Part shown: piece after piece, positions 4,438-54,788 of the stretch
Numbering within the stretch: position 1 is the stretch's first letter
How the letters are laid out: every line of letters starts with the position of its first letter
Origin: an uncultured bacterium
Lineage (GTDB): Bacteria > Patescibacteriota > Doudnabacteria > UBA920
Length of the DNA stretch: 64,000 nt
Assembly (NCBI GenBank): GCA_963749445.1
Contig: CAVVMJ010000005.1
Span: forward strand, 34,915-98,914
Reading direction: 5' to 3'
The notes under the pieces: model-generated
What the model was told of the DNA's origin: nothing
The model's database searches: none
The model's input: the letters and a program-made list of their open reading frames with translations, nothing else
Program-made: the position numbers and the translations under genes

Positions 4438-5659
4438 TATATAAACAATAAGTCATTCACACAGGCGATATGAGAAAAGCCCTATTAGCATTAAGCAATA
4501 AGCGGTTTATGTAAACGGCCCAATTTAAATTGTGCCTTCATAGCCGCGAAAGCGGTTTTTTTGTCGCTCATTATCAATAATCAAATCAAATATAGTGCGA
4601 CAATCCGTCGAAGCTTTAGCGAAGGCGGATTCACCCAAAAATTGTCACCAGATAAATACTGCTCTGCGGGTCTCAGCGTTCCGTAAAACCTAGGGAACAC
4701 AGGCTTGTAGAACCGTTTTCTAGAGCAGTAGTTATGTGGTGGTAATACATCAGCTGATAAGCCAGTAAGCTAGTAAGCAAATCAGGCTATTACAGACCAA
4801 GCACTTTAACAACAGAATAAAGATTATCGTTCTTACCAAGTAACGATAATCTTGGGTAGAAAACATTGTAAGTAAAACATTGTATCCAAGTAATTTGTTG
4901 ATGATCCGCTTTGCCGCGGATCGTCGTCACAAATTGCTAGTCAAATATTAAACACAGACTTTTCGGACAATAAACGGACTTTGGCGGACTCGTTCCGCTT
5001 TAGTCTGTTCCCAGTCCGCAACAGTCAGTGTACATAGATTAAAACAGACAAGGGTATACGGTGGATGCCTAGGTAATATGAGCCGATGAAGGACGCGACA
5101 GCCTGCGATAAGCCTCGGGGAGCTGGCAAATAAGCTTTGATCCGTGGATGTCCGAATGGGGAAACCCACGTACTGGAAGAGTACGTGCTGCTATGCCGTG
5201 GGGTATAGTATGCGGGAACCATGCGAAGTGAAACATCTCAGTAGCATGTGGAAAATAAATCAATTGCGTAGCAATACGCAAAGAGATTCCGTCAGTAGTG
5301 GCGAGCGAAAGCGGAAAGATATAGAAATTTATTCGTTGGGTGGGCTATAGTAGCGCCCGGCGAATAAATATCTATTAGCCCAAACCTAATTAGTGTTTTC
5401 AAAGTCGCAAGACAGAGAATTAAAGATTACAGTCGTTGCTAGTTAGGCGTTATAAGTGGAAGTCATTGCCCCTCTGTAAAGGGGCAGGGAATTATGTTTG
5501 TTGTTTAGCAGAACACGCCTGGAACGGCGGACCAAAGAGGGTGATAGTCCCGTATCGCGAAAAACCATGCAATTTCCTGACTTTTTCTTGAGTACGACCA
5601 GACACGAGAAATCTGGTCGGAAATCAGGTCGACTAAGATCTAAGGCTAAATACTCATAT

Positions 5660-5700
<41 letters not shown>

Positions 5701-6492
5701 CACCCCGGAAGGGGAATGAAATAGTTTCTGAAACCGTATACTTACAAGGAGTGGAAGGGCTTACAGTGCGAAGCACTGTAAACTGTTAACAATTAACAAT
5801 TAACGATTGACCGACTGCAAACTGCAGTTGTACCAGCGTTAATTGTTAATCGTAAATCGTTAATTGTTTGCAGCGCTTCGCGCTGTGCCTAACCGCGTGC
5901 CTATTGAAGAATGATCCAACGAGTTAATCTTTAGCAGCTTGATTAAGTTCTATCAAGAGACGAAATCGTAGTGAAAGCGAGGATGAATAGTCCGTAAAAA
6001 GAATAGTAGTTAGTAGTAGGTAGTTAGTAGCCAGTACAACTTGCGCATTCAAAATGCCGGTTGGTTTGCTACTATCTACTTACTACTTACTACTTACTCT
6101 TTTATGTTGCTAGAGTTAGACCCGAAACCCGGTGAGCTACGCATGGCCAGGATGAACGTGGTGTAACAACCACGGGAGGTCCGAACCCACTATTGCTGCA
6201 AAAATAGGGGATGAGCTGTGCGTAGGGGAGAAATTCCAATCGAACCGGGTGATAGCTGGTTCTCCTCGAAATAGCTTTAGGGCTAGCGTCAAGTGTTCCC
6301 AATAGAGGTAGAGCACTGAATAGAAACCTGCTGCGCAAGCGGTAGGCTCTAACCAAACTCCGAATTCTATTGGCCAAGAACTTGGCAGTCAGTCCGTGAG
6401 GTCTAAGCTTCACGCGACAAATGGAGAAGAATCCACACCACCGTCTAAGGCCCCCAAATCCGAGCTATAGTGCAAAGGATGTGGGGTTGCTC

Positions 6493-6529
<37 letters not shown>

Positions 6530-7261
6530 TAAAGAAAGCGTAACAGCTCACTGGTCAAGCGATCCTGCGCCGACAATATATAGGGGCTAAGCTTGGTGCC
6601 GAAGACGTGGATCAGTTTTGGAGATTAGAGGTTAGAAATTAGAGATTGGAGCTGCAGTTCCAATATCCAACTTCCAATTTCCAATCTCCAAAACTGGTGG
6701 TAGAGGAGTGTTGTACATGGGTTGAAGCGGTATGCGTAAGCGGCCGTGGACTTTGTACAAGCAAGAATGTTGGAATAAGTAATATATATAGAGGTGAGAA
6801 TCCTCTTCGCCGAATATCCAAGGGTTCCAGGGCAACGATCGTCGTCCCTGGGTTAGTCGATCCTAAGAGCGGGCCCCAAAGGGTCCGTCCGATGGAAAAT
6901 ACGGTTGATATTCCGTAACCACCTTAACATTATCCAAGGCGGAACGCATCATGGTAGCGTCAGCGTTATCTGACTATTAGCGTCGTTTCAGGCGTAGGAT
7001 GGAGTTGCAGGCAAATCCGCAGCTCCTCAATTTCCGATTACTACCTCGCAAGAGATGTGACCGGCAAATTGGAAGTCTGAATCTGAAAAGAAACCTGGCA
7101 ACGGGGATTAGCGCGAACCAAGGTGCCAAGAAAAGCGTCGTGGTCAGGTGTTAAGGTGCTCGTACCGTAAACCGACACAGGTGGATGGGGAGAGAATCCC
7201 AAGGCGTCCGGAACAATGTTCGTTAAGGAACTCGGCAAAAAAGCAGGTGTACCTTAGGTAT

Positions 7262-7730
7262 ATACCTTGCCCAAAGTTAGAGGTTGGGGGTTAGAGGTTA
7301 GAAGTTGGAATGTGATATAATCAAAATATGAAAGATTTTCACGATCTTGATTGCTATAAAAATTCCAAAAAACTCTACCCCGTTATAGTAAAGGTGACAA
7401 GAACTTATCCTCGAGAAGGATATCAATTAGGCGACCAAACACGTAGAGCAGCCAACGGCATTCACGCTTGTATAGCGGAAGGTTTTGGCAGATCGGTCGC
7501 CGAATTTAAAAATTATTTAACCAGATCGCTTGGTTCAAATAATGAAGTGATTAGTCACATAGAAGACGCGGAAGCAGTGGGCTATATCAAGCCCGAGACC
7601 GCTAAGGCGTTGATTGAAAAATATACTATAGTGGGAAAGCAAATTTATAGGCTGAGAGAAAAATGGAAGTAATCCAATTTCCAATTTCCAATCCCCAACA
7701 TCTAAATTTGGGCCGCAGCAAAAGACCTCT
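7262..7730 (+). other. 23S rRNA IVS carrying an ORF and bounded by low-complexity inverted repeats
   Basis: Left arm TTAGAGGTTGGGGGTTAGAGGTTAGAAGTTGGA and right arm TCCAATTTCCAATTTCCAATCCCCAACATCTAA are near-perfect reverse complements that enclose ORF 7328..7672. Confidence 0.6.
7328..7672 (+). CDS. Four-helix-bundle protein of the 23S rRNA IVS protein family
   Basis: 114 aa. Motifs DQTRRAANGIHACIAEGFGRS and GSNNEVISHIEDAEAVGYI match the family typically encoded inside 23S intervening sequences. The ORF lies wholly inside the rRNA insert. Confidence 0.7.
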   Translation: MKDFHDLDCYKNSKKLYPVIVKVTRTYPREGYQLGDQTRRAANGIHACIAEGFGRSVAEFKNYLTRSLGSNNEVISHIEDAEAVGYIKPETAKALIEKYTIVGKQIYRLREKWK

Positions 7731-7884
7731 CCCGACTGTTTACCAAAAACTTAGGTCCGTGCTAAAGCGCAAGCTGATGTATACGGGCTGATGCCTGGCC
7801 AGTGTCAGAAGGTTAAACCGGTTGGCGCAAGCCGATCGGCCAAGCCCTGATGAACGCCGGCAGTAACTATAACTGTCCTATGGT

Positions 7885-8627
7885 CAACCGGAATTTGCCT
7901 TATCTAAGCAAAATTTAGATAAGCATTGAGCTGCCATAGTAAAACTTGACTATTTGCTGGAATATCTGTGAATCTGAGTGTACTATGGTATAATATAACC
8001 ATAGAGAAATCTATGAAGTATTATGCCAAGTGAAAATCATTTCAGTGCAGACAATCAGCAGGAAAAGCTAGTATATTGGATAGTTGGCTTTGTTGATGGC
8101 GGAGGAACCTTTTCCGTTAGCTTCAACAAAAATTCAACTACGAGTGCTGGTTGGCAAATTTTTCCTGAGTTTGTGATTACTCAAGGCGCAAAAAGTTTAA
8201 CTGCTCTTGAAGAAATTCAAAAATTCTTTGAGTGCGGGAAACTTTATGTAAATCGCCGGAAAGATAACCATAAAGAAGATCTTTATCGCTTTTGCGTTAG
8301 ATCTTTTAAAGACTTAGAAGAAAAAATTGTCCCATTCTTTCAAAAGTATCCTTTACGGACTGCAAAGAAAGAAGACTTTAATAAATTTGTGCAAATCCTT
8401 TCTTTAATGAAGAAAGGAATTCATTTAACTCCAAAAGGAGCAATTGAAATTGCCAAAATTATTGAGACCATGAATCGTAAAAAACAATCCAGATATTTGC
8501 TCTCCTCAGAGACTACACGCCAAGCTCATCAATCTGATGGGAAGATATAGTCCGACCTGCATGGCGACATGCAGAGCGTCGCAGAAATGTAGACGCCGAT
8601 GATTATGAAATCATCAGTAACAAATCG
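7885..8627 (+). mobile_element. Group I intron in 23S rRNA (inserted after the CCTATGGT block, E. coli numbering about 1917) encoding a LAGLIDADG homing endonuclease
   Basis: The exon junction restores GTCCTATGGT|AGCGAAATTCCTTGTCG. The internal guide GCCATAG (about 7948) pairs with exon CTATGGT with a terminal U:G. The 5' exon ends in U and the intron ends in G. P7-like AGACTA and ATAGTCC elements are present. Confidence 0.7.
8023..8550 (+). CDS. LAGLIDADG homing endonuclease, intron-encoded
   Basis: 175 aa with the LAGLIDADG-type motif VGFVDGGGTF and a typical single-motif architecture. It is located inside the 23S intron. Confidence 0.8.
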   Translation: MPSENHFSADNQQEKLVYWIVGFVDGGGTFSVSFNKNSTTSAGWQIFPEFVITQGAKSLTALEEIQKFFECGKLYVNRRKDNHKEDLYRFCVRSFKDLEEKIVPFFQKYPLRTAKKEDFNKFVQILSLMKKGIHLTPKGAIEIAKIIETMNRKKQSRYLLSSETTRQAHQSDGKI

Positions 8628-9182
8628 AGCGAAATTCCTTGTCGCGTAAGTTGCGACCCGCACGAATGGCATAACGAGTAGAGGACTGTCTTAACGAACA
8701 CTCCGATGAATTTACAATGGCGGTAAAGATGCCGTCTACCCGCAGCAAGACGGAAAGACCCTATGAAGCTTTACTATAGCGTGTCATTGCAATTTTATTT
8801 TTATTGTTTAGCCTAGGTGGGAGCCTTTGAAACTCTGGCGCCAGCCGGAGCGGAGGCAACAGGTGAAATACCACCCTGTAGAGATGAAATTGCTAACCAA
8901 TGTTTAACCTGCATTGGGACAGTGGCTCGTGGGTAGTTTAACTGGGGCGGTTGCCTCCTAAATGGTAACGGAGGCGTTTATTAAGGTAGGCTAGGCATGG
9001 ATGGAAATCATGCCGGTAGTGCAAACGCATAAGCCTGCTTGACTGCAAGGGCGGCGACCCGCGCAGGCACGAAAGTGGAAGTTAGTGATCCGATGCGTTC
9101 GAGTGGAAGACGCAAAGCCCAACGGATAAAAGTTACTCTAGGGATAACAGGCTGATCCTCTCCAAGCGTCCACAGCGACGAG

Positions 9183-9225
<43 letters not shown>

Positions 9226-9226
9226 T

Positions 9227-9270
<44 letters not shown>

Positions 9271-9300
9271 CGAGCTGGGTTCAAAACGTCGTGAGACAGT

Positions 9301-9614
9301 AAAAGGAATAACCATGCTGTCTATAAATTTGGCTAAATCGGTGAAACTCTCGTGGTAGAAAACGCGAGACAATACCGAGGGAAGATTCATCTGTTAGATG
9401 AAAACCCGTAGAGACTACACGCCAGACTATGTAATTATCAACCCGATGATTTATCGGGAACCAGATGAACCGCTGGGATAATACACTTGAAGATATAGTC
9501 CGAACTGCATAGTGATATGTAGAGTGCATTAGAAATGATGCGCCACTTAGTTCAGCGTCTGATCAGCGTTCTAATCGGCGACTAATCAGCGGCGAACTAA
9601 GAAGTAACAAAGTG
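9301..9614 (+). ncRNA. Second, ORF-less group I intron in 23S rRNA (after GAGACAGT, E. coli about 2593 region)
   Basis: The junction restores CGTGAGACAGT|TTGGTCCTTATCTGC. The guide GCTGTCT pairs with exon AGACAGT with a terminal U:G. It ends in G. It shares AGACTACACGCCA and GAAGATATAGTCCGA core blocks with the first intron. Confidence 0.55.
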
Positions 9615-10039
9615 TTGGTCCTTATCTGCTGTGGGTGTACGAAACTTGAGTAGTCGCATCTCTAGTACGAGAGGACCGAGATGCATAGACCTCTGGTGTA
9701 CCCGTTGTCCTGTCAAGGGCATGGCGGGGTAGCTAGGTCTAGTTAGGATAAACGCTGAAGGCATATAAGCGTGAAGCCGTCTACAAAACTAGGTTTCGTT
9801 GTCTGGCGCAAGCCGGACGAAAGGTTCGGGGAAGACTACCCCGTATCACATTAGGTGGTAGTAAGTAGGGAAGTAGGGAGTAGCAGCAATGTTACTAACT
9901 ATCAACTGCAAGCTATTAACTAATTTATAGGCTGCAGGTGTAAGCTTAGTAATAAGTTCAGCCGAGCAGTACTAATCAACCAAAAGTTTTAATCTATTTT
10001 TTGACTAGCAATTTGTGAAAAGAGCGAAGCACCTTATTT

Positions 10040-10132: not shown

Positions 10133-10343
10133 TAACTAACATACAATGTTCAAATCTACCTGTAAGATTATTTTGGCGCTGCTTGCGGTTATTGGGGTAA
10201 TTGGGCTGTTCTTTGCCTTTTGTTCCCCGATTATCCATCAAGTTAAGGCTTTTTAGCAGATATTTGATTTTTAACATTTGACAAACAAGGGAGTGCGTCC
10301 TGAAAATTTGTTAATTAACAAATTTGTTAATTAACAAATTTTC

Positions 10344-10457
10344 AGGGTGGCATTTCCAGCGCGGTCCTACCTTACTCCATCCCGAACTAAGAAGTAAAAC
10401 GCGCTTGGGCCAATGATAGTCATACGCATGTATGCGCAAAAGTAGGTGGCTGCCCGC
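10344..10457 (+). rRNA. rrf: 5S ribosomal RNA
   Basis: CCGAACTAAGAAGTAAAACGC and the terminal helix GGGTGGC/GCTGCCC match 5S architecture. A 48-nt perfect palindrome at 10299..10346 precedes and overlaps the 5' end. Confidence 0.8.
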
Positions 10458-10461
10458 TAAT

Positions 10462-13926: not shown

Positions 13927-13932
13927 CCGCGG

Positions 13933-14075
13933 AGCTTTCTCCCCCTTCTTGTCCGCCGTAGCTTTAGCGAAGGAGGATGGGGGAGATGTCCCGAAGGGAC
14001 AGAGAGGGTGCAGTATGTAGTGCAGGCCCTCGGCCTGCCTGTAGCGCGCCGATCCCGTGTCAAGCACGGGACAAG
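13933..14075. repeat. Cluster of GC-rich palindromic elements (families 1 and 2 modules) between glmS and tdh
   Basis: TCTCCCCC...GGGGGAGATGTCCCGAAGGGACAGAGAGGGTG plus GTCCGCCGTAGCTTTAGCGAAGGAGG. The latter is the reverse complement of a block inside tdh at about 14985-15015. The cluster also spuriously extends the tdh ORF upstream. Confidence 0.5.
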
Positions 14076-14105
14076 TTTATCGGCCCCCCATTGATTAACT
14101 TTTTT

Positions 14106-15542
14106 ATGAAAGCATTAATATTTGATAAAAATAAAACCAACTGGGAAACCTCGCGCGGGTTTGAGTTGGTGGACGTGCCCGAGCCGGTTTTGGGTGTGGG
14201 AGATGAGGATAAAATTATTATCAAAGTCGCTTATGCCGGCGTGTGCGGTACGGATAAGGGGATTTGGAATAGGCAGGCGTTTAAGGACGCGGTGTTAAGT
14301 TCCATAGACGCGGAAGAAACGCGGAATTTAACGCGGAAAGATACGGAATCAAAAATTCCTGTCATTGCGAGTGCAGCCGAAGCAATCTTATCCAAGGAAA
14401 AGATTGCTTCGTCGGCTAGCCAAAGCCCTGGCCTCCTCGCAATGACACAGAAGAAAACCTACCGCATCATCGGCCACGAATTCTTCGGCGAAGTTAAGGA
14501 AGTTGGATCGTCAATAAAAAATATTAAGCCTGGAGACTTTGTGGCATGCGAGTCGCACGTGGTTTGCAATAAGTGCTACCAGTGTTTGCACGGGCAAAAG
14601 AATGTTTGCACTAATGAAAAAATACTTGGGATTTCGGTAGACGGCGGGTTTGCGGAATTTGCCAAAGTGCCGGCACAGGTTACGTGGAAAACCGATACTT
14701 CCAAAATCCGCCCCGAAGTGGCGGCCATGCAGGAACCTTTTGGCAACGCGGTGCACGCCGCAAGCAAAGTGGACGTAAAAGGAAAAACCGTCGCGATTTT
14801 TGGCCTGGGACCGATTGGAATGTTTTTAACTATCATTTTAAAAGGTCTGGGCGCGTCGTCAATAATCGGTATAGAGCCAAATCCCATTGCGGAAGATATG
14901 GCAAAGAAGTTGGGGATTGATTATGTAATTCCTTTGCGCACCACCCCGTCGGCTAACGCCGCCACCCCTCCCAAGCTCGGAGGGGAAGCTCCCGCCTTCG
15001 CTAAAGCTTCGGCGGACAAGCCGCGGTTATCCGCATCATCCGAAAAAGTGCGGAGCTTCTCCTCCTTGTTAAAGGAGGAGTACCCCGCGCAGCGGGGGGA
15101 GGTGGTTGGAGTTGATACAAAGCCTTACGCTCACAACCCCGCCGTCGCCGAAGAAATTAAAAAAATCACAGGCGGGTTGGGCGTTGACGTGGCGTTTGAA
15201 ATGGCCGGGTTTAATTCTTCGGTAAACAATGCCATCGCTTCCGTCAGGCGCGGCGGGGACGTAATTTTATTTGGTTTAAAGAACGGGGATTTTGTGTTTG
15301 AGGATTACAATCGTCTGGTTATGAAAGGTATTACTATGCACTGCGTAGCCGGTCGGCAGATTTGGCAGACCTGGGACATCACCAAATCGCTGATGGAAAA
15401 TGTTTCCAACGGCGTCCAGGAAAAACTTTTCAACGTTATTTTAGACCGCGGTCACGGGACAATCTTACCCATAGCCGATTATACAAAGGAAAAGTTTGAA
15501 GAGATGATGGTTAAACACCCTAAATTTTTATTACAATTTTAA
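14106..15542 (+). CDS. tdh: Zinc-dependent L-threonine 3-dehydrogenase-like alcohol dehydrogenase, with two in-frame repeat-element insertions
   Basis: The GHEFFGEV and Cys-rich structural zinc region (CESHVVCNKCYQCLHGQKNVC) are present, with the Rossmann GLGPIG. Insert 1 (14306..14445) and insert 2 (14938..15113) are palindromic elements translated in frame. The protein is about 480 aa versus the usual about 340. Confidence 0.7.
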   Translation: MKALIFDKNKTNWETSRGFELVDVPEPVLGVGDEDKIIIKVAYAGVCGTDKGIWNRQAFKDAVLSSIDAEETRNLTRKDTESKIPVIASAAEAILSKEKIASSASQSPGLLAMTQKKTYRIIGHEFFGEVKEVGSSIKNIKPGDFVACESHVVCNKCYQCLHGQKNVCTNEKILGISVDGGFAEFAKVPAQVTWKTDTSKIRPEVAAMQEPFGNAVHAASKVDVKGKTVAIFGLGPIGMFLTIILKGLGASSIIGIEPNPIAEDMAKKLGIDYVIPLRTTPSANAATPPKLGGEAPAFAKASADKPRLSASSEKVRSFSSLLKEEYPAQRGEVVGVDTKPYAHNPAVAEEIKKITGGLGVDVAFEMAGFNSSVNNAIASVRRGGDVILFGLKNGDFVFEDYNRLVMKGITMHCVAGRQIWQTWDITKSLMENVSNGVQEKLFNVILDRGHGTILPIADYTKEKFEEMMVKHPKFLLQF

Positions 15543-15550
15543 TTAATAAT

Positions 15551-15907
15551 ATGACAATAATTGGAAAAAGACCAGAAATTTTTGTTGTACCTGATCCAGA
15601 GTCAATAACGCCGAGGGCAATTTTAAAAATTAACCCAACGGCGGAGTCATTTTTAAGATCCCTGGGTGCCGAAATAACAGATAGTAAAATAATTTTAAAT
15701 CCGAAATCCGGAAACAATAGCTATCTTATTGCAAATATAGGATTTACTGACGCAGGCAAAGAAAGCGAGGTTGATCTTATTGAGGTAAAAATGAGGAATA
15801 AAAATTGTATTATAGTCTACAGACGTAATCGAGACACGAAAGGGATAATAGATGACAGGTATGAGTATGAACCAGAATCAGGATTATTTAAAAGAATAGA
15901 ATTTTAA
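15551..15907 (+). CDS. Hypothetical protein (AT-rich ORF inserted between tdh and kbl)
   Basis: 118 aa with no recognisable motif. Its local composition is much more AT-rich than the flanking genes. Confidence 0.3.
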   Translation: MTIIGKRPEIFVVPDPESITPRAILKINPTAESFLRSLGAEITDSKIILNPKSGNNSYLIANIGFTDAGKESEVDLIEVKMRNKNCIIVYRRNRDTKGIIDDRYEYEPESGLFKRIEF

Positions 15908-15918
15908 TTTTAATTTTT

Positions 15919-16479
15919 ATGTTTTTAAACTATAAAAAACAATTTGAAAATGAACTTAAAGAAATCCGTGACAGCGGAATGTGGAAAGATGTGGGGGTGC
16001 TGGAAGGAAAACAGGGGACGGAAGTCAAGATGGGCGGAAAGATTTTGCTGAATTTTTGCGCCAACAATTATCTTGGGCTCGCATCGTCAGACGAACTCGC
16101 GCAGGCGGCTATTGATGGCGTAAAAAAATATGGCTTCGGTGAGGCATCCGTTCGCTTTATAGTCGGTACGTCAACCATCCACAAAGATTTGGAAAGCGAG
16201 ATTTGCAAGTTTTTTGGCACGGAAGACGCGATTACTTATACTTCGTGCTTTGATGCGAATACGGGATTGTTTGAAACAATTTTAAAGGAAGGTGACGCGG
16301 TGTTTAGCGATGAGTTGAATCACGCATCAATAATCGACGGTATTAGGTTGTGCAAGGCGGAAAGGTTTAGGTATAAAAATTCGGAGATGGAAGATTTGGA
16401 GAGTAAACTCGTTGAGTTTACTTCGCGGAAAACGCGGAATCTGACGCGGGAGGACGCGGAAAGGAACCCCGGATGCTAA
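15919..16479 (+). CDS. kbl: 2-amino-3-ketobutyrate CoA ligase (glycine C-acetyltransferase), N-terminal part of a split gene
   Basis: The N-terminal AOS-family sequence is followed up to [12 protein letters not shown] repeat element (16424..16465, translated [14 protein letters not shown]) then leads to a stop. Confidence 0.65.
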
Positions 16480-17144
16480 TCGCGACTGACGGTGTGTTTT
16501 CTATGGATGGGATTACCGCTAAAGTAAAAGAAATTTGCGATTTGGCGGATAAATACGGGGCAATGGTTATGGTAGACGACAGCCACGCCAGCGGGGTGTT
16601 GGGAAAGCTCGGCCGGGGAAGCGTTGAAGGGTTAATGGACCGCGTGGATATTTTAACTTCAACTTTCGGCAAAGCCTTGGGTGGCGCCGGCGGCGGGTTT
16701 ACGGCCGGACGCAAGGAAATAATCCAGGTGCTTCACCAGCGCAGCCGCACGACTTTGTTCAGTAATTCTTTGCCGCCAATGATTGCCGCGGCCGCTTTGT
16801 TTGTTTTGCAGAATTTTGATAAGAAATTCATCAAGCTGACAAAACAATTACAGGAGAATACTGTTTATTTCAGGTCGAGGATGGAAAAATTGGGTTTCAA
16901 ACTCGGTGGAGACGGCAAACACGCGATTACGCCCGTGATGCTGATGGAAGAAAAATTGGCAACCGAAATGGCCGGCAAGTTATTTGCGGAAGGAATTTAC
17001 GTGCGTGGGTTCACTTATCCGGTAGTGCCCAAAGGAAAAGCGCGCATCCGCGTTCAGATATCGGCCGCGCACACTAAGGAACAAATGGACAAAGCCGCAG
17101 CCGCGTTTGCCGAAGTCGGGAAACAGATGGGGATTATTAAATAG
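16473..17144 (+). CDS. kbl: 2-amino-3-ketobutyrate CoA ligase, C-terminal part (PLP-lysine region), in a different frame
   Basis: It starts [13 protein letters not shown] and includes the [11 protein letters not shown]-binding lysine region. It overlaps the upstream part by 7 nt. AAAGGAA lies shortly upstream of its ATG. Confidence 0.65.
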
Positions 17145-17252
17145 TATGTAGTGTGCCGATCGATTGGTTTTAGTCTGCAGCCCTTCTCCCCCTTTGGGGG
17201 AGATGCCGAGTGCATCCGAGGCAGAGAAGGTGCAGTGTAGTCTGTTAATTTT

Positions 17253-19307
17253 ATGCAACTATCAGAATTCAAAAAATTATACCAAGCCTCCATTTCCGAC
17301 CCGGAAGGCTTTTGGGCGAAAACCGCATCGGAAGGAATCGAGTGGTCCAAAAAGTGGGACAAGGTTTTTGAATGGAATTACCCAAATTACCAATGGTTTT
17401 TGGGAGGCAAGTTAAACGTTACTTACAATTGTTTGGATAGGCATATTAAGGCGGGCTTGGGAGAAAAGATTGCCTATGTTTATACAAATGAAAATTATGA
17501 AAGAACAATTACCACGTATCGGGAATTACTTAGTCAGGTTAATAAGTTTGCAAACGGCTTGAAATCGCTCGGCGTAAAAAAGGGCGATAAGGTAGTTTTG
17601 TATATGCCGCTGGTAATTGAGCAGATTGTCGCCATGCTCGCCTGTGCGCGCATCGGCGCAATCCATAGCGTGGTGTTTGCGGGTTTTAGCGATAAAGCTT
17701 TGCGGGACAGAATTATCGATTTGCAGGCCAAAGTTATAGTTACTGCGACGTGGACATTGCGCCGCGGCGCGAAAAAAGAGTTAAAGTCCACGGTGGAAGA
17801 GGCGGTGAAGGGGTTGGGGTTTGTGGAGCGGGTAATTGTTTTGGATCGCGGTATAGAAAGTGTGAATTTTGCCATTCCGAGTGAGGCTTTAGCCGAGTCG
17901 AGGAATCTGCCAAATAAGGGAACGGATAGATCCCTCCACTCCTCCGCCTCCGCCAAGGCTATGGCGGACAAGTCGGATGCACTCGTCGGTCGGGAGGGTA
18001 CTAATAAAGAAATTGATTATCATCAGCTTATCGTAAACCAAAACGAAACCTGCGAACCGGAAATAATGGATAGCGAGGATGTTTTGTTTATCCTGTACAC
18101 TTCCGGCTCCACCGGCAAGCCCAAAGGCATTGTCCATACAACCGGCGGCTACAGCATTTACGCGCATTATACTACAAAAAAGGTATTTGATTTAAAATCA
18201 GCTGACATCTTTTGGTGCACTGCTGATCCCGGCTGGATAACCGGCCACAGCTATTTGGTTTACGGGCCGCTCTCCAACGGTTTGAGATCGGTCATCGCCG
18301 AAGGAGTGCCGGACTACCCAACACCGGACCATTGGTATAAAATTATAGAACAGGAAAAAGTCACTGTTTTTTATACTTCGCCGACGGCCATTAGAATGCT
18401 CCGCAAATACGGCGAGCGGCATCCCAAAAAACACAATCTAGCTTCCTTAAGGATTTTAGGCACGGTCGGTGAACCCATTAACCCTGAAGTCTGGCAATGG
18501 TATAATCAATATATCGGAAACGGCAAGTGCCCCATAGTTGACACCTGGTGGCAAACCGAAACCGGCGGGCAAATGATAACCACTTTTCCCGGTTTGCCGC
18601 AAAAACCCGGAATTGCGGGTTTACCGTTTTTTGGGATAGAAGCGGAAGTGGTAAACAAAGAAGGTAAAAGCGTGCCCGCGGGAGAAAAAGGATTTTTAAT
18701 TATCAAAAAACCCTGGCCCGGAGCTTTGCGGAATTGTTTGAATGACGCTGGTCGGTTTAATCAATATTGGAATGAAATCAAAGGCGTCTACCCCCACACC
18801 AATAAGTTGGGGTACGAAAGTCCGGCTGATAATTATCAATCAGAGACTAATCAAAAATTAAAGAGCATACAAAACGGTTATGGTGTGGGGGTGTATTTTA
18901 CCGGCGACTTTGCCATTAAGGACAAAGACGGCTATATCCAAATTTTGGGAAGATCGGACGACGTGATAAATATTTCCGGGCACCGGATAGGGACCGCGGA
19001 AGTTGAGAACGCGCTGGTATCGCATAAGGATGTTTCCGAGGCTGCGGTTATTGCCAAACCCGATGAGATTAAAGGCGAAAAGATCAAGGCGTTTATAGTG
19101 CTTAAAGCATCTGTTTTGGCCGATGAAGGGCTGATTAAAGACATTAAGCGGCATATGCGCCGCGAAATCGCGGCCATGGCCGTGCCAGACGAAATTGAAT
19201 TTGTGGATGCGCTGCCCAAAACCCGTAGCGGAAAAATAATGAGGAGAGTGCTTAAGGCAAAAGAATTGGGGTTAGGCACCGGAGATTTGTCGGTGCTAGA
19301 CAGGTAG
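17253..19307 (+). CDS. acs: Acetyl-CoA synthetase (AMP-forming), with an in-frame palindromic insertion
   Basis: YTSGSTGKPKG AMP-binding motif and C-terminal SGKIMRR. An insert at 17931..17998 is translated ...DRSLHSSASAKAMADKSDALVGREG... Confidence 0.85.
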   Translation: MQLSEFKKLYQASISDPEGFWAKTASEGIEWSKKWDKVFEWNYPNYQWFLGGKLNVTYNCLDRHIKAGLGEKIAYVYTNENYERTITTYRELLSQVNKFANGLKSLGVKKGDKVVLYMPLVIEQIVAMLACARIGAIHSVVFAGFSDKALRDRIIDLQAKVIVTATWTLRRGAKKELKSTVEEAVKGLGFVERVIVLDRGIESVNFAIPSEALAESRNLPNKGTDRSLHSSASAKAMADKSDALVGREGTNKEIDYHQLIVNQNETCEPEIMDSEDVLFILYTSGSTGKPKGIVHTTGGYSIYAHYTTKKVFDLKSADIFWCTADPGWITGHSYLVYGPLSNGLRSVIAEGVPDYPTPDHWYKIIEQEKVTVFYTSPTAIRMLRKYGERHPKKHNLASLRILGTVGEPINPEVWQWYNQYIGNGKCPIVDTWWQTETGGQMITTFPGLPQKPGIAGLPFFGIEAEVVNKEGKSVPAGEKGFLIIKKPWPGALRNCLNDAGRFNQYWNEIKGVYPHTNKLGYESPADNYQSETNQKLKSIQNGYGVGVYFTGDFAIKDKDGYIQILGRSDDVINISGHRIGTAEVENALVSHKDVSEAAVIAKPDEIKGEKIKAFIVLKASVLADEGLIKDIKRHMRREIAAMAVPDEIEFVDALPKTRSGKIMRRVLKAKELGLGTGDLSVLDR

Positions 19308-27157: not shown

Positions 27158-28594
27158 ATGAGAATTATCGCTGATTTACAAATCCATTCAAAGTATAGCA
27201 GGGCCTGCTCGCAGGATTTAAATCCTGCAAATATCGGGCTGTGGGCGGATAAAAAAGGCATTGGGATTGTGGGCACCGGGGATTTTACGCATCCTAAGTG
27301 GCTTTTGGAATTGAAGGAAAATTTGGAAGAGGCGAAACCGGGGCTGTATCGGCTGCGATCAAGCAACCTCTCCTCAACCCTCCCCTCAAAAGGGGAGGGG
27401 GTTCCGCGAGCGATGTTTATGCTTACCGCGGAGGTCTCCTCGATTTATAAACAGGGTGACAAGGTGCGGCGGGTGCATAATGTGATTTTCGCGCCGAACT
27501 TTGCGGCGGTTGACCGCATTATCAGCGGTTTGGAAAAGGCGGGCGCCAACCTAAAAGCCGACGGCCGGCCGATTATGGGCGTGCATTGCGACACTTTGGT
27601 TAAGATTGTGAAAGAAGCTTCATCAGAGGCAGAGGTTATCCCAGCTCACGCCTGGACGCCGCATTTTGGGCTGTTTGGCTCTTTATCAGGATTTGATTCC
27701 ATAGAGGAAGCTTTTGGCGACCAGTCAAAATATATATTTGCCATTGAGACCGGGCTGTCATCTGATCCAAAAATGAATTGGCAAATTTCTAAGCTGGACA
27801 ACATCACTTTGGTGTCCAATTCCGACGCGCACAGTTTGCGGAAAATCGGCAGGGAAGCCAATGTGTTTGAAGTTGACGAGAAAAAATTGTCTTATGCGGA
27901 AATTATCCGCATCATTAAAAATAAAGACCCGAAAGAGTTTTTGTTTACCATTGAATTTTTTCCCGAAGAAGGCAAGTACCATTTGGACGGCCACGCGGAC
28001 TGTAAGTTTAGCTGTCAGCCGAGCCAGACAAAGAAATTGAAAGGCATTTGTCCGGTCTGCGGCAAGAAACTGCTGGTCGGGGTGCTGTCGCGCGTTGATG
28101 ATTTGGCCGATCGCGAGTTTGGCTTTATTCCGCCGCGGGCCATTCCTTACAAGAGTGTGATTCCTTTGGAAGAAATTATTGCGGAAACTTTGGGGGTTGG
28201 GGTACAGAGCAAAAAGGTGATGGCGATGTATGAGCAAATGGTTAAACGTACCACCCCGTCTGCTATCGCAGACACCCCTCCTATTGTAGGAGGGGAGGCT
28301 CCGCAGTTATCCTTGGATGACACGCGGAGCTCTCCTCCTGGAACAGGAGGAGTACCCGCCGAAGGCGGGGGAGGTGGTAGACTTTATGGCGAATTTGCCA
28401 TTCTTTTGGAAATGCCTGAGGACCAAATCGCCCGAATATCATCAGCTGACATAGCAGCCTCCATCCTCCGCGTCCGCAGCGGCCAAGTCCGCGTGGAAGG
28501 CGGCTACGACGGGGTGTTTGGTAAAATTCACTTATTTGAAGAAGGTGAACGGGAAAAGATCCTTAAAAAGCCCAAGCAGGCTAGTTTGTTTTAA
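27158..28594 (+). CDS. PHP-domain endonuclease Q-like protein, with two in-frame palindromic insertions
   Basis: DLQIHSKYSRACS, GTGDFTHP, PAHAWTPHFG, SNSDAHS, GKYHLDGH and a CPVCGKK zinc ribbon match EndoQ architecture. Inserts lie at 27366..27410 and 28251..28379. Confidence 0.55.
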   Translation: MRIIADLQIHSKYSRACSQDLNPANIGLWADKKGIGIVGTGDFTHPKWLLELKENLEEAKPGLYRLRSSNLSSTLPSKGEGVPRAMFMLTAEVSSIYKQGDKVRRVHNVIFAPNFAAVDRIISGLEKAGANLKADGRPIMGVHCDTLVKIVKEASSEAEVIPAHAWTPHFGLFGSLSGFDSIEEAFGDQSKYIFAIETGLSSDPKMNWQISKLDNITLVSNSDAHSLRKIGREANVFEVDEKKLSYAEIIRIIKNKDPKEFLFTIEFFPEEGKYHLDGHADCKFSCQPSQTKKLKGICPVCGKKLLVGVLSRVDDLADREFGFIPPRAIPYKSVIPLEEIIAETLGVGVQSKKVMAMYEQMVKRTTPSAIADTPPIVGGEAPQLSLDDTRSSPPGTGGVPAEGGGGGRLYGEFAILLEMPEDQIARISSADIAASILRVRSGQVRVEGGYDGVFGKIHLFEEGEREKILKKPKQASLF

Positions 28595-31782: not shown

Positions 31783-34266
31783 ATGACAGACAAAAGAGAA
31801 GGCAAATTCATACTTTGGTTTGACCAAATTAAAAAAGACGACGTGCCTTTGGTAGGCGGCAAGAACGCCAACTTGGGGGAGATGTACCAGAATCTGACTC
31901 AGGCGGAAAGCAAAATTTTTCCGGGCGAAAAAATTTCCGTGCCTTACGGGTTTGCCGTAACGGCTGCGGCTTATGCGCATTTTATCAAGGAAAATGTTTT
32001 AGACGCCAAAATCCGCGAAACTTTGGCCGATTTGGACACGCATAACATCAAACAGCTGGAAGACAAGGGCCAAAAGGTCAGGCAACTGATTTTGGAGGCC
32101 AGTTTTCCGGCGGATTTGGAAAAAGAAATTAAGACGGCTTTTGCCGAGCTGGGCAAGAAATTAAAACTAGCCCCAAATAATCTGGATGTGGCAGTCCGCT
32201 CCTGCGCCACTGCCGAAGACTTACCGGACGCCAGTTTTGCCGGCCAGCAGGAAAGCTATTTGAATATCCGCGGCGACCACGAGCTTATGGAAGCCATTAA
32301 AAAAGCCTTCGCTTCGCTGTTCACCAACCGGGCCATTTCCTATCGCGTGGACCAAAAATTTGACCACTTTGCGGTTAAGCTGTCCGTAGCCGTGCAAAAA
32401 ATGGCGCAGAAGCGACCGCGGCGTGAGCGGCGTGATGTTTACCATAGACACTGAGAGCGGCTTTAAAGATTTGGTTTTGATTAACGCGTCCTGGGGCTTG
32501 GGCGAATTCGTGGTCAAGGGCGTGGTCACGCCGGACGAATTTAAAGTTTTTAAGCCCACGCTGAAAAAGGGTTTTAAATCCATCATCAGCAAAACAATCG
32601 GCAGCAAGGAAAAAAAGTTGATCTACGCCAGCGAAGGCATCAGTCCGACCAAGGAGTTGCCCGTGGCCGGACGCCGACCGCCACAGTTTTACTTTAACGG
32701 ACGACCAAATTTTAAAATTGGCCAAATGGGCGATACCATCATTGAAGACCACTACAAACGCCCAATGGACATTGAGTGGGCGTTTGACGGCGTGCAAAAG
32801 GAATTGTTCATTGTCCAGGCGCGGCCGGAAACTGTGCAGGCCAGAAAAGACGTCAAGGTTTTGGAAGAGTATTGTGATGAAAGAAAAAGGCAACGTGATT
32901 TGCCAGGGCGCGGCCGTGGGCGCGAAAATCGGCCAGGGTAAAGCCCACTATATTAAGGACGCCACGCAGCTTTCGGAATTCAAAAAGGGCGAAGTTTTGG
33001 TTACGGAAATTACCGACCCGGACTGGGAGCCGATTATGAAAATTGCCTCAGCCATCGTGACCAACAGCGGCGGCAGGACAAGCCATGCGGCCATTGTGTC
33101 GCGCGAGCTGGGCATTCCGGCCATTGTGGGCACCGGCAATGCCACCGAGGTTTTAAAAACCGGCATGGAAATTACCGTGTCCTGCGCCGAAGGCGAAATC
33201 GGCAAAGTTTACGCCGGCTTTTTGAAGTATGAAGTGCATTAAGACCGATTTGACCGACTTTAAGCCGCCCAAAACCGACATCAAAATGATAGCCGCCGAC
33301 CCGGAACTGGCTTTTAGCCATTCCTTTTTGCCGCAGCGGGGCGTGGGGTTGGCCAGGAAGAATTTATAATTTCCAATTTTATAAAAATCCATCCCAACGC
33401 CTTATTGATTACGACAAGCTGGCGGACAAAAAAGTTAAAGAGCAGATTGACGAGCTCACGGTCGGGCTACCCGGACAAGGTACAATATTATTGTGGAAAA
33501 ATTTTCTTACGGCATTGCGCCAACTGGCCGCGGCGTTTTATCCTTTTGACGTGCTGTTGAGGTTTTCCGATTTTAAGACCAATGAATACGCCAACTTAAT
33601 CGGCGGCAAATTGTACGAGCCGGAAGAGGAAAACCCGATGATGGGCTGGCGCGGGGCGAGCCGTTATTATGACCCTAAATTTGAAAAAGCGTTTTCTTTG
33701 GAAGTGGCAGGCCGTTAAACTGGTGCGCGAAGAAATGGGCTTGTGGAATTTGAGCGTGATGATTCCGTTCTGCCGCACGCCGGAGGAAGGCCAAAAAGTC
33801 GTGGACACTCATGGTCAAATACGGGCTGACCAACCGCATTAAGCCGGCTGACCGCAAGAAAAAGAAGAACGGCGATTTGGTGGAGGCTTACGAGTGCTGG
33901 GTGATGGCGGAAATTCCCTCCAACATTTTGCAGGTGGACGAGTTCGCGGAAATATTTGACGGCTTTTCCATCGGCTCCAACGATTTGACGCAGTTAACCC
34001 TTGGGCTGGACCGTGATAATAAAACGATTGCCCCGATAGGAAACGAACGCAACAAATCCGTCCATAAACTTATCGGCATTCTGATTCCCGAGGCGCACAA
34101 GCGCGGCCTTAAAGTCGGTATCTGCGGCCAGGGCCCCTCTGACTTCCCGGACTTTGGCGAATTCCTGGTCGGCCTTGGCATAGATTCCATCTCCCTTAAC
34201 CCCGACACCGTAATGAAAGCCACGGTCAAGATTAAGGAAGTGGAAGAGAAGCTGGGGAAGAAGTAG
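31783..34266 (+). pseudogene. ppsA: Phosphoenolpyruvate synthase (pyruvate, water dikinase), disrupted by at least five frameshifts
   Basis: All PpsA domains are present but spread over five ORFs in three frames. They include ATP-grasp, [18 protein letters not shown] phosphohistidine, [13 protein letters not shown], and the PEP-utilising C-terminus. Frame changes are near 32405, 32880, 33235, 33395, 33705 and 33795. Confidence 0.75.
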
Positions 34267-34343
34267 ATAACGGTAATTGATAATAATAAGGGCCAACCGT
34301 ACGGCTGGCCCTTTAAAGTTGCCTTGAATTTTTAGCCCATTCG

Positions 34344-34658
34344 GTGTATGATATTTGTATGGATTCAAATATTCAACAAATTAAACAGTTATGCGAGCCG
34401 GTGTTTCGCCGTTTCCGGATTAAACGCGCCGGCGTTTTTGGCAGTTACGCCAGAGGAGAGCAACGCAAAGACAGCGATGTGGATCTTTTAGTGGAGATGG
34501 ATTTGTCTTATGATTTGCTTGACTTTATTAAATTTAAACGGGAGCTGGAAAATAGCTTGAGCAGAAAAGTCGATGTAGTTGAATATAGTGCTATCAAGCC
34601 TGTTATCCGGCAAAATATTTTAAATTCCGAAGTCGTAATTTATGAACCACAACTATAA
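34344..34658 (+). CDS. Minimal nucleotidyltransferase (MntA-like antitoxin)
   Basis: GSYARGEQRKDSDVDLLVE pol-beta-type NTase motif. Confidence 0.7.
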   Translation: MYDICMDSNIQQIKQLCEPVFRRFRIKRAGVFGSYARGEQRKDSDVDLLVEMDLSYDLLDFIKFKRELENSLSRKVDVVEYSAIKPVIRQNILNSEVVIYEPQL

Positions 34659-34992
34659 ATCCGCAGAACTTTATTTGCAGGATATTTTAGAGAGTATAGG
34701 CATTCTTGAGGATTATGTCGCTGGCAAGACTTGGGAAGATTTTAATTCCGATGTGGGCTTGCAGGACAAGGTTATCCGAAGAGTGGAAATTATCGGTGAA
34801 GCGGCAAAATACGTTACGGAAGAAATGCGGCAAAGCACGCCGGAGATTCCCTGGACGCTGATTACCGATATGCGCAACGTACTGATTCACGAGTATTTTG
34901 GCATAGACTTAAATCGCGTTTGGACAGTAATACAAGGGACGAAGTTAAAGGAATTAAAAGTCAGCGTGGAGAGGTTGTTGCAGGATTTATGA
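34642..34992 (+). CDS. HepT-like HEPN toxin (DUF86)
   Basis: RNVLIHEY Rx4-6H HEPN motif. It overlaps the MNT gene by 17 nt, the classic type VII TA arrangement. Confidence 0.7.
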   Translation: MNHNYKSAELYLQDILESIGILEDYVAGKTWEDFNSDVGLQDKVIRRVEIIGEAAKYVTEEMRQSTPEIPWTLITDMRNVLIHEYFGIDLNRVWTVIQGTKLKELKVSVERLLQDL

Positions 34993-35024
34993 TTCAAGCT
35001 GATAATAAGTTTTAAATATAGTAT

Positions 35025-36014
35025 ATGCCAGAAAATTTAACATACTTGGAGATAGCCTATAAAATTTTGAGTGAGGAGCCGAAGCTCAAGGAGATACACT
35101 ATCGCGATTTAGCAAATAAAGCTTTTGATTTAGGGTTAATAGAAAGCGATGATTTAATTATTGCAGGAAATATTGCTTCCGCGATTAATGCCGATATAAG
35201 GAAGTCAAAATCACAAGGGACCGAGTCAAAATTTATTTCTTTTGGGAATGGTTTATATGGGTTATCAGAATACGAGCCAAAAGGAATCTTTGCAGACATA
35301 AGAAATAAAAATCAGGCGGTAAAAAAGCAGTTATTAGAAGCATTGCATGCGATGCATCCTTCTAAATTTGAAGAATTGGTAGGAGAAGTTTTAAGGAATC
35401 TTGGGTTTGAAAAGGTTCAAATTACTGGTAAAACAGGGGATGGTGGAATTGACGTAACTGGTGAGTTGATTGTTGCGGGTATAATAAGAAATAACGTTTC
35501 CGTTCAAGTTAAGAGATGGAGAAATAATGTTCAGAGGGCTAGTATTTCCGAGTTAAGAGGGAGTTTAAGGCCGCATCAGACTGGTTTATTTATTACCACT
35601 TCTAATTTTTCAAAACAATCAGTTGAGGAAGCGGAAGATCCTTATAAAGCCCCAATTTCGTTAATGAACGGAAATGAACTTGTTGATTTACTTTGCGAAT
35701 TCGGTGTTGGCATAATTCTTGAAAAAGTTACCATTTATGATATTAATAAGAATGAAATAAATTTTGATTTTCCAGAATCGATCGCAACTGATGAAAAAGG
35801 AATTGAAATTTTTGCTAACTATAAAAATCATAAACATTTTGCAATCTATTTTTCCCCGACGAAAATTGTTTACGAAAATGAAGTTTATAATTCTCCTTCT
35901 GGCGCTGGAATGAAGGTGCAGAATGGATTGCCCGTGAATGGCTGGAAATTTTGGAAATTTACTGACGCAAAGACAGATAAAATTTATCCAATAGAAAGAC
36001 TTCGTAAAAAATAA
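35025..36014 (+). CDS. Mrr-like restriction endonuclease (N-terminal HARE-HTH/Mrr_N plus Mrr_cat) with an extra C-terminal domain
   Basis: FEELVGEVLRNLGFEKVQITGKTGDGGIDVTG ... VQVKRW match the Mrr catalytic core. The gene is AT-rich. Confidence 0.7.
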   Translation: MPENLTYLEIAYKILSEEPKLKEIHYRDLANKAFDLGLIESDDLIIAGNIASAINADIRKSKSQGTESKFISFGNGLYGLSEYEPKGIFADIRNKNQAVKKQLLEALHAMHPSKFEELVGEVLRNLGFEKVQITGKTGDGGIDVTGELIVAGIIRNNVSVQVKRWRNNVQRASISELRGSLRPHQTGLFITTSNFSKQSVEEAEDPYKAPISLMNGNELVDLLCEFGVGIILEKVTIYDINKNEINFDFPESIATDEKGIEIFANYKNHKHFAIYFSPTKIVYENEVYNSPSGAGMKVQNGLPVNGWKFWKFTDAKTDKIYPIERLRKK

Positions 36015-36018
36015 AATT

Positions 36019-36186
36019 ATGACAAAACAATATATAAAGAAAATTATAAAAAAAGAATTCCAAGAAATTGGCAGAGAGTATAAAGATTGCAATTGGAAAG
36101 AATACGGTATAGATGAGGATCAGGCAGAGGTATATAACCGAGGCTGGCATGATGCATATCGGAGTATATTATCAATGTTAGAGTAG
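36019..36186 (+). CDS. Small hypothetical protein (55 aa) immediately downstream of the Mrr-like gene
   Basis: ORF MTKQYIKKIIKKEFQEIGREYKDC..., 4 nt after the Mrr stop. It is below the ORF-track size cut-off and was found by reading. Confidence 0.25.
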   Translation: MTKQYIKKIIKKEFQEIGREYKDCNWKEYGIDEDQAEVYNRGWHDAYRSILSMLE

Positions 36187-36244
36187 TATCGAGAAGTGTG
36201 TACGGGTTTTGAGACTTCCTGGTTATTCAGAAAAAGCGAAATAC

Positions 36245-36273
36245 AAAAGCCCTGACATTAAGTCGGGGCTTTT
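36245..36273 (-). terminator. Rho-independent terminator downstream of tRNA-Ser
   Basis: The minus-strand hairpin AAAGCCCCGAC/GTCAGGGCTTT is followed by TTGTATTT. Confidence 0.45.
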
Positions 36274-36274
36274 G

Positions 36275-36364
36275 TGGCGGAAGCGGAGGGATTCGAACCC
36301 TCGAAGCCTTTGACAGCTTGCGCGCTTTCCAAGCGCGTGCACTAGACCACTATGCGACGCTTCC
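36275..36364 (-). tRNA. tRNA-Ser (anticodon GGA)
   Basis: Cloverleaf GGAAGCG/CGCTTCC acceptor, anticodon stem CGCGC/GCGCG with loop TTGGAAA, long variable arm, T-arm GAGGGTTCGAATCCCTC, and CCA encoded. Confidence 0.8.
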
Positions 36365-41275: not shown

Positions 41276-42455
41276 ATGTCTAAAAAATGTTATAATCATT
41301 TCATGAGCATTAGTGAAATTAGAGATAATATAATTGGCTTTTTGTATCGTAACATACTTAAGCCGATTTTCTTTTTGATGGACGCGGAAAAAATTCACGA
41401 CCGGATGATTTTGGCGGGTAAAATTTTAGGCGGCAACCCGGTCACCAGGGGACTAACCGGACTGCTGTTCGGTTATCAGAATCCTAAGCTTACGCAAAAC
41501 ATCGCGGGGCTGCATTTTGAAAATCCCATTGGTTTGACCGCGGGATTTGACAAGGAAGCTTTTTTGCCGGGGCTTTTGCCCAGCGTGGGTTTTGGCTTTG
41601 AAGAGGCCGGGTCAATTACCGCTTTGCCGTTTGCGGGCAACGAGCGGCCGTGGATGTGGCGCCTGCCAGAGCAGCGGGCCTTGCGGGTTAACTACGGCCT
41701 TAAGAATTCCGGCGCGGTAAATATCCATAACCGTCTGTTTGGGAAAAAGTTTGGTTTTGTGCTGGGCATCAGCCTGGCCAAGACCAATTCCGAACAAACC
41801 TCGCACGTCCAAAGCGGCATAGCGGATTATTTTGAAAGTTATAGGATTTTTCAGGATGTCGGTGATTATTTTACCATCAATATCAGCTGTCCCAATACCA
41901 GCGAGCAAAGTCCGATTTTTGCCCAGCCGGAAAATTTGGATTTGCTTTTGGCCAGACTTTTCTCCATCCCCAAAACCAAGCCGGTATTCATTAAGCTGTC
42001 GCCCGATTTGCCACAAAGTCAGTTGGAAGTGGATTTTGGCGGTGGGACAAAAATATCCGGTTGATGGTTTTGTCTGCACCAATTTAACCAAAGTCAACGC
42101 GTCCAGCCATGCGGGCAAGGGCGGGTTTTCCGGCAAGGCGGTGGAAGAATTATCCAATCAGATGATAGCTAAAGTCTATAAATTTTATCACGGCCCATTC
42201 GACAGGGCTCAGGGCCGCCTCGAGCGTAGTCGAGATGGCGGCCAAAAAATCGTTATCGGCTGCGGCGGCGTGTTTTGTGCCGAGGATGCCTATAAAAAAA
42301 TCCGCCTGGGCGCGTCTTTAATCCAGCTGTTTACCGGTATGATTTTTCAGGGGCCGCAGCTGATTGGCGAAATTAACCGTGGGCTGATCCAGTTTTTACG
42401 GCGCGATAATTTTAACAACATTGCCGAGGCGGTGGGCGCGGATAACAAACCTTAA
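41276..42455 (+). pseudogene. pyrD: Dihydroorotate dehydrogenase (class 2) with a single +1 frameshift near 42030
   Basis: N-terminal ORF 41276..42064 and C-terminal ORF 41832..42455 together cover PyrD. Removing one G in GAAGTGGATTTT restores ...SQLEVILAVGQKYPVDGFVCTNLT... Confidence 0.65.
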
Positions 42456-45020: not shown

Positions 45021-45172
45021 AAAAAAAGCGCACCAACCTGATGCGCTTTTTTTGGCTCGGCCTGCTGAACGACGTTCGTACCTGTCTACAAATTGCTACA
45101 GTGTACCCCGATGCTTCTCGCGGTATTCCCGGAGAGATTCACGGGGTTCACTAATTCATTACTCATCCAAAC
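45021..45172 (-). ncRNA. Candidate small-RNA / 3'-UTR module, copy 1. It has the core ATGAATTAGTGAACCCCGTGAATCTC ... GGCCGAGCC followed by a rho-independent terminator
   Basis: The minus-strand sequence ends in AAAAAAAGCGCATCAGGTTGGTGCGCTTTTTTT. A homologous module lies at 46297..46445 and a partial core at 59126..59165. Confidence 0.35.
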
Positions 45173-54648: not shown

Positions 54649-54788
54649 CAGAAAAACGAGAAAAACATAAAGACGGTCATCTGTCTTGCTTTACGTTTTT
54701 CTCGTTACCAGCCGAAAGGTTGGTAGACCCGCAAGGGTCGGGCAAGCGGGTGGCCCTTTTTGTTTGCCCGCGGAAAGACCAATCAGCC

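Follow-up and report, generated by a model that had tools for sequence, protein, structure and literature searches.

The kbl gene analysed here lies between tdh and an acetyl-CoA synthetase-like gene within a 64-kb stretch of DNA, which in its entirety we call the window; its source contig, present in NCBI and ENA, is 173,017 nt long. As deposited, kbl does not form a single uninterrupted frame and is instead carried by two overlapping ORFs, which meet at a short GC-rich repeat array. The features of the locus are the following.

14106 to 15542, + strand: tdh (threonine dehydrogenase), intact, likely start ATG 14106
14306 to 14349, + strand: array inside tdh related to the one in kbl, period 12, 2.7 copies, read in frame as DAEETRNLTRKDTES
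15919 to 16479, + strand: first ORF of kbl as deposited (ORF1), 186 aa, genuine Kbl sequence to Arg170 (codon 16426-16428)
16411 to 16472, + strand: repeat-derived variable loop of Kbl, 21 aa when restored, against 8 aa in the empty form
16424 to 16464, + strand: degenerate direct array of four CGCGGAA-like units with start-to-start spacing of 9, 12 and 10 nt
16429 to 16432, + strand: site of the frame break, the A-run cggAAAAcgc, with one base missing (A5 to A4) or, less likely, two extra
16473 to 17144, + strand: second ORF of kbl as deposited (ORF2), 223 aa, beginning at a conserved internal Met
17253 to 19307, + strand: acetyl-CoA synthetase-like gene downstream of kbl, an uninterrupted ORF named from its sequence

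Elsewhere in the window, the 23S rRNA gene (5037-9996, + strand) is 4960 nt long against a 2925-nt model and contains a group I intron (9272-9522) and the ORFs 7328-7672 and 8023-8550; a 5S rRNA gene occupies 10343-10458. Another group I intron (61540-61793, - strand, 109 bits) shares the final few bases of a serine recombinase gene (59908-61545) and has flanking tRNA-like 3' ends (61492-61516 and 61582-61606); this region may be an intron-split tRNA uncalled by ARAGORN. There is a LOOT RNA match at 54616-54739 (+ strand, 73.8 bits), overlapping the start of the ORF 54615-55817, and a sequence of about 110 nt is present in two copies (45049-45159 and 46332-46444), 82-84% identical and 1283 nt apart, among uncharacterised minus-strand ORFs. 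A nucleotidyltransferase/HepT toxin-antitoxin pair followed by an Mrr-type restriction endonuclease gene occupies 34344-36014 (+ strand); all three genes are intact and identical in an independent contig, L088.

The final 16 codons of ORF1 are out of frame. ORF2 lies in the -1 frame relative to ORF1, and three-frame translation finds its frame open upstream as far as 16416; it contains the Schiff-base lysine (TFGKALGG) and the DDSHA motif. The two ORFs overlap in the sequence ATGCTAA (16473-16479), where the ATG of ORF2 (16473) precedes the TAA stop of ORF1 (16477-16479). The public gene call for this locus, P0121, corresponds to ORF2 from Met11, and consequently the frameshift is present in the deposited record. 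When joined, ORF1 and ORF2 match solved Kbl structures along their length (3tqx residues 7-408, E 3.8e-141; 1fc4, E 3e-126; also 7v58), with about 12 extra residues at the junction. A first-pass annotation of this DNA had reported kbl in two ORFs (15919-16479 and 16473-17144), interrupted at a repeat-like array with an in-frame counterpart in the adjoining tdh gene, both halves being otherwise intact. All of this observation is confirmed by our analysis, while the interpretation that accompanied it is supported only in part.

The sequence of the two halves is that of a conserved enzyme. Across 116 orthologs, 204 alignment columns reach a conservation of at least 97%; the restored protein deviates in none of them, against an ortholog median of one deviation, and by this measure kbl is not decaying. 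An alignment that includes the window protein (A2) has invariant columns at N134-H135, D220, S222-H223 and G251-K252. By analogy with E. coli Kbl, these residues would include the Schiff-base lysine and the PLP-binding His, Asp and His. They are divided between the halves, His135 being in ORF1 and Asp220, His223 and Lys252 in ORF2. In a confident AlphaFold model of the restored protein (pLDDT 88.4, pTM 0.89), the insert takes up the end of helix 157-175 and the loop before strand 186-191, with a mean pLDDT of 64 for the block 171-180, and is predicted to occupy a tolerant surface site. Some orthologs in A2 have two more variable sites, one after residue 38 and the other near residue 333 in the numbering of the window protein.

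The position and size of the frame break were determined by aligning the window with the junction DNA of three relatives that have the same loop type, L081 (P0085), L082 (P0044) and L083 (P0062). L081 and L083 read TCG CGG ... AAC GCG GAA TCA CGC GGA AGG AAA CCA CGG ATG, and L083 reads GTT GAG TTT ACT TCG CGG AAT CAC GCG GAG ... GCG GAA TCA CGC GGA AGA GAA TCA CGA ATG. On the 5' side the window matches the relatives in the frame of ORF1 (GTT GAG TTT ACT TCG CGG), and on the 3' side it matches them in the frame of ORF2 (AAC GCG GAA TCT GAC GCG GGA GGA CGC GGA AAG GAA CCC CGG ATG); the loop peptide of the latter frame has counterparts in ANAESRGRKPR-M of P0085 and AAAESRGRESR-M of P0062. Between the last codon in the ORF1 frame (16426-16428) and the first in the ORF2 frame (16431-16433) there are only the two bases AA (16429-16430), and therefore the break is a single-base deficit in the A-run or, less likely, an excess of two. 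One A added to 16429-16432 restores a single ORF that encodes an intact Kbl of 408 aa. The gain or loss of one 10- or 11-nt repeat unit is rejected as the cause, since the comparison with related DNA leaves just two bases of the A-run in which the break can lie.

The loop in which the break falls is variable throughout the clade. The best 120 homologs of the joined protein are Kbl proteins of Patescibacteria or Candidatus Doudnabacteria, 73-86% identical and 372-448 aa long. We took the loop segment, which follows DLExxL, from each of them and counted the 117 near-full-length orthologs. An in-frame insert of 11-45 aa is found at the loop in 105, flanked by KEFTSR on one side and, on the other, by (K)PR(R)-M, whose Met opens MLIATDG; the remaining 12 of the 117 carry an empty form of 8 aa (KAAGDRRR and close variants). 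The site is thus empty in some orthologs, as expected of an in-frame selfish repeat insertion, and the comparison with related kbl genes that the first-pass annotation had proposed does reveal empty sites. A separate motif search of genome contigs with generic Kbl motifs returned only distant Kbl genes (49-68% identity) and no close relative, and look-ups of the exact products of ORF1, ORF2, P0121 and the acetyl-CoA synthetase-like ORF gave no record.

The interiors of the inserts are very diverse among orthologs, and include PENPHPGPLPGGEG, TSPQPSPNLG, NVVQATGLP, TNADLTQTNADTK, MNADKKTDEHG and PEKPENPSADVKYK, among others. P0104 and P0110 are 97% identical outside the loop and have inserts of 12 and 40 aa, respectively, and unrelated inserts are also found in the near-identical pairs P0011/P0063 (96.9%) and P0012/P0028 (94.1%). 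Furthermore, the inserts of the relatives resemble translated dispersed repeats (PLPxGEG, NADxxTD, VVQATGLP). The pairs show that the loop inserts turn over fast, and so many unrelated inserts at one Kbl site across the clade point to turnover at a hotspot rather than to one insertion.

Since 105 of the 117 orthologs have an in-frame insert in this loop and the Met that begins ORF2 is conserved, the element in the window represents the clade-wide variable loop and not a recent frame-breaking insertion. The first-pass annotation had held that the length of the element breaks the frame, and had taken the ATG at 16473 to be a restart codon. Neither proposal is supported: an in-frame insert is the usual condition in the clade, with the break in the window being a one-base deficit in the A-run 16429-16432, and the ATG encodes a Met that intact orthologs conserve inside the protein, as the first residue of MLIATDG.

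The array itself, made of ACGCGGAA-like units, is found at the kbl junction with a similar array inside tdh. Five matches to CGCGG-N3-8-ACGCGG are present in the window, where 0.26 would be expected, and all of them lie at the kbl junction and in tdh (14309-14336). Local alignment of the kbl and tdh arrays scores 47, against 14.7 +/- 3.1 for shuffles (maximum 26); the resemblance is real. These are the only two copies of the array within the 64 kb, and the kbl copy falls below the Tandem Repeats Finder minimum score of 30. The first-pass annotation had located the kbl element at 16424-16465; the string CGCGGAAAACGCGGAATCTGACGCGGGAGGACGCGGAAAGG is indeed present, at 16424-16464, so that only the end coordinate was off by one. 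It had also pointed to a peptide beginning TRNLTR, which for kbl is an out-of-frame reading, the relatives keeping another frame.

Downstream of the tdh array there is a palindromic element that reaches about 14449. The tdh product is about 85 aa longer than those of its relatives (392-395 aa) because it carries two in-frame repeat inserts. These lie in 14305-14449 and 14940-15110, and one of them includes the palindromic 'VIASAAEAI...LLAMT' element; segments of the 3' insert are 70-85% identical to the insert of the gene 27158-28594 (repeat families D1 and D20). In-frame repeat-derived inserts are also seen elsewhere, in the acetyl-CoA synthetase-like gene at about 17880-18020 and in the gene 27158-28594 at 28250-28380. 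The intergenic regions 13930-14105 and 17150-17250, which flank tdh and kbl, are full of GC-rich palindromic repeats, for example gcccttctccccctttgggggagatgcc..., and such repeats lengthen the mechanical tdh ORF by 43 codons upstream of its likely start at 14106. The acetyl-CoA synthetase-like gene is not adjacent to kbl in the relative L082.

Further broken genes in the window were sought by Pfam scanning of codon-usage-filtered stop-to-stop fragments. The PEP synthase gene (pps, 31783-34263, + strand) proved to be cut into many fragments. Frameshift-aware alignment with an intact ortholog, P0238, places 12 one-base frameshifts within 32407-33810, nine of them insertions and three deletions, and in most of these indels the neighbouring base is doubled. 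The frame-corrected protein has 825 aa and shares 91% identity with P0238 (823 aa), with colinearity kept across all the junctions; it deviates at one of 355 highly conserved columns (ortholog median two) and contains no in-frame stop. Twelve indels that are not accompanied by substitutions are the signature of technical error and not of evolutionary decay. Real decay of pps is consequently rejected, as the 12 indels come with neither an excess of substitutions nor an in-frame stop. A second gene was found to be split.

41276 to 42455, + strand: pyrD (dihydroorotate dehydrogenase), split in two ORFs with the break near 42030-42035; DHO_dh profile positions 2-172 and 242-291

The pyrD frameshift appears to be caused by an extra G near 42033 in gaagtgGattttgg. 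About 160 nt downstream of this break there is a repeat-like in-frame segment, FDRAQGRLERSRDG. Among the ORFs checked, ligA, glmS, the acetyl-CoA synthetase-like gene, ORFs of 805 and 1014 aa and the resolvase are uninterrupted.

Run ERR10755942 contains this strain and supplied three independent Logan contigs for comparison with the window; a literature search for the run accession gave no result.

14993 to 16010: contig L087, 100% identity
18361 to 20432: contig L084, 99.9% identity, no gaps
34175 to 36304: contig L088, 100% identity

The window is accurate wherever these contigs cover it, and the tdh sequence from 14993 onward is confirmed by L087. All three end short of the kbl junction, the pps cluster and the pyrD site, which fits the idea that the bad stretches are those that short reads could not assemble. 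These results depict an assembly that can be relied on in the stretches that short reads assemble and that is prone to indels in the others, which include repeats. Two more observations agree with this: L085, a short-read contig from a relative, ends within the same variable loop of Kbl, and in L086, which has short gene calls for tdh and a CofD-family gene, kbl is broken just ahead of the Met that begins ORF2.

Taking these results together, we consider that the split of kbl is probably an assembly artefact and that the organism would have a single gene of 408 codons. In the mechanism that we propose, one A would have been dropped from the deposited run 16429-16432, a run of five being read as four, and the frame of ORF1 would then continue through 16 wrong codons to a chance TAA that overlaps the codon of the conserved internal Met. 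The TAA is indeed the +1-frame reading of the conserved ATG CTA AT. Short-read contigs tend to break at repeat arrays, and long-read or gap-filling sequence is hard to polish there. The error would thus lie at the edge of a short GC-rich repeat array, where errors are to be expected. The real feature beneath it is the surface-loop insert of Kbl, which derives from repeats, evolves fast and is in frame in most relatives.

The same window contains pps with its 12 one-base errors, and therefore the kbl split is most likely a sequencing artefact; we infer that the kbl indel is most likely technical and not biological. The first-pass annotation had left the choice between a pseudogene and a split gene. 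Given the 12 one-base frameshifts of pps and the frameshifted pyrD, that choice gives way to a third possibility, an indel error of 1-2 nt, as the likeliest. Some evidence does tell against an artefact. Outside pps, frameshifts are seen at just two isolated places in the window, and the long genes (ligA, glmS, acs, and the ORFs of 805 and 1014 aa) are intact, so that the background error rate is low. Four A's make a short homopolymer, and the pps errors are mainly insertions, whereas the kbl event is a deletion.

The same low background gives some room to a genuine one-base deletion, in which case kbl would be a very recent pseudogene or a variant carried by a fraction of the population. At every place covered by an independent contig the window is accurate, and isolated frameshifts need not be errors; the frameshift stands in the deposited record, with the public call P0121 starting inside ORF2; and A-runs mutate by slippage. 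If this were true, the conversion of 2-amino-3-ketobutyrate to glycine and acetyl-CoA would be lost while tdh remains intact. The intact state of tdh nevertheless speaks against it, as does the lack of decay in either half of kbl, where no conserved column differs (0/204). Furthermore, the window holds a cluster of technical indels in pps, and the break is at a repeat, where assembly and polishing are weakest. We regard a genuine deletion as unlikely.

A genuine frameshift could also leave kbl functional if it were made as two polypeptides, residues 1-186 and the 223-aa product of ORF2, translationally coupled through ATGCTAA and reassembling into an active PLP enzyme. In favour of this, conservation is complete in each half, the cut falls within a low-confidence surface loop between two secondary-structure elements, and the stop and start codons overlap, as they would in translational coupling. 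However, the conserved codons for MLI account for both the Met and the TAA, which are no adaptation, ORF1 would bear a nonsense tail of 16 residues, and the active-site residues are divided between the halves. The first-pass annotation had pointed to AAAGGAA ahead of the ATG of ORF2. Its reading as a ribosome-binding site is not supported, as Shine-Dalgarno-like motifs are rare in this genome and, of 40 gene starts in the window, just 4 have one; moreover, ORF2 is preceded by GC-rich sequence, and normal starts are AT-rich.

No genuinely split kbl was found in any relative. The databases contain short proteins that begin at MLIATDG, and two of the contigs encoding them were examined. In L085 the protein starts at the end of the contig. 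In L086, kbl breaks a few bases before the same Met, and its neighbours are cut short as well, with calls for tdh and the CofD-family gene that are shorter than in the window or in L082. Expression of kbl as two coupled polypeptides is therefore judged highly improbable. The more elaborate form of this proposal, a natural split alpha-oxoamine synthase that arose from selfish-repeat activity, was cut in a loop of clade-wide repeat turnover and reassembles its halves around PLP, would be marginally less probable again.

Programmed -1 ribosomal frameshifting or transcriptional slippage at CGG AAA ACG would give full-length Kbl, and a -1 shift at the A-run would yield exactly the conserved protein. 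Yet CGG AAA ACG contains no X XXY YYZ heptamer, there is no stable downstream structure (z-score 0.12 on folding 16415-16500), and the relatives encode the loop in one frame, with nothing conserved to suggest recoding. A run of four A's is too short for transcriptional slippage. This explanation has hardly any chance of being correct.

Two further candidates were rejected. Translational bypass of the element, or its excision in the manner of an intron, for which T4 gene 60 and the mitochondrial byps offer models, is contradicted by the relatives, which translate the loop in frame, and by the other frameshifts in the window, which are not in repeats. A phase-variable contingency locus does not agree with four imperfect, unequally spaced units that score below 30 in Tandem Repeats Finder, nor with a break that lies in the A4 run and not in the number of units.

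An artefactual split of kbl has practical consequences. Unless reads show the contrary, the threonine-to-glycine route should be taken as intact and not as broken, and metabolic reconstructions should not treat the frameshifts in kbl, pps and pyrD as pseudogenes. What deserves further attention is the surface loop of Kbl, with its repeated in-frame insertion or replacement of repeat-derived sequence. In the literature that we searched, no description of such an in-frame repeat-insert loop in Patescibacteria was found. In-frame repeat inserts are also present in tdh, in the acetyl-CoA synthetase-like gene and in other genes of the window, and the whole resembles, in a different phylum, a phenomenon described in Rickettsia.

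The window protein is homologous over its full length to Kbl (2-amino-3-ketobutyrate CoA ligase, or glycine C-acetyltransferase, EC 2.3.1.29), a member of the alpha-oxoamine synthase family with PLP fold type I. As in the kbl-tdh pair of E. coli, kbl is next to tdh, the arrangement of the classical threonine-to-glycine pathway. The gene differs from known kbl genes in being interrupted, as deposited, by one frameshift, and the protein differs from E. coli Kbl in having a repeat-derived insert of 13 residues in the loop equivalent to KEAREAGARHV.

The interruption itself is comparable to the frameshifted 'pseudogenes' of long-read or hybrid metagenome assemblies, which are likewise one-base indels in otherwise perfectly conserved genes. 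In those assemblies, indel errors cluster where short reads assemble or map poorly, that is, in repeats and in genes common to co-occurring strains. Attribution in the window differs in resting on the error signature of pps and not on read data.

The Rickettsia palindromic elements (RPEs) are selfish DNA that occurs as in-frame insertions within protein-coding genes (Ogata et al. 2000, 2002, via PMC10969869). As with RPEs, to the extent that this account describes them, the repeat-derived sequence in kbl is short, in frame and tolerated in a surface loop of a conserved metabolic enzyme, sequence related to the array is found in an unrelated gene, tdh, and orthologs with an empty site exist. 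Unlike the RPEs of that account, the kbl array consists of direct units of 9-12 nt, is not palindromic, measures about 40 nt and has two copies in the window. A search of the element for a palindrome or hairpin found direct repeats, and the RNA fold of 16415-16500 has the z-score of 0.12 given above. Also unlike RPEs as described there, the kbl site is occupied by many unrelated inserts across the clade. By this analogy, the insert in the Kbl loop would work in the manner of RPEs, although it is not a member of that family.
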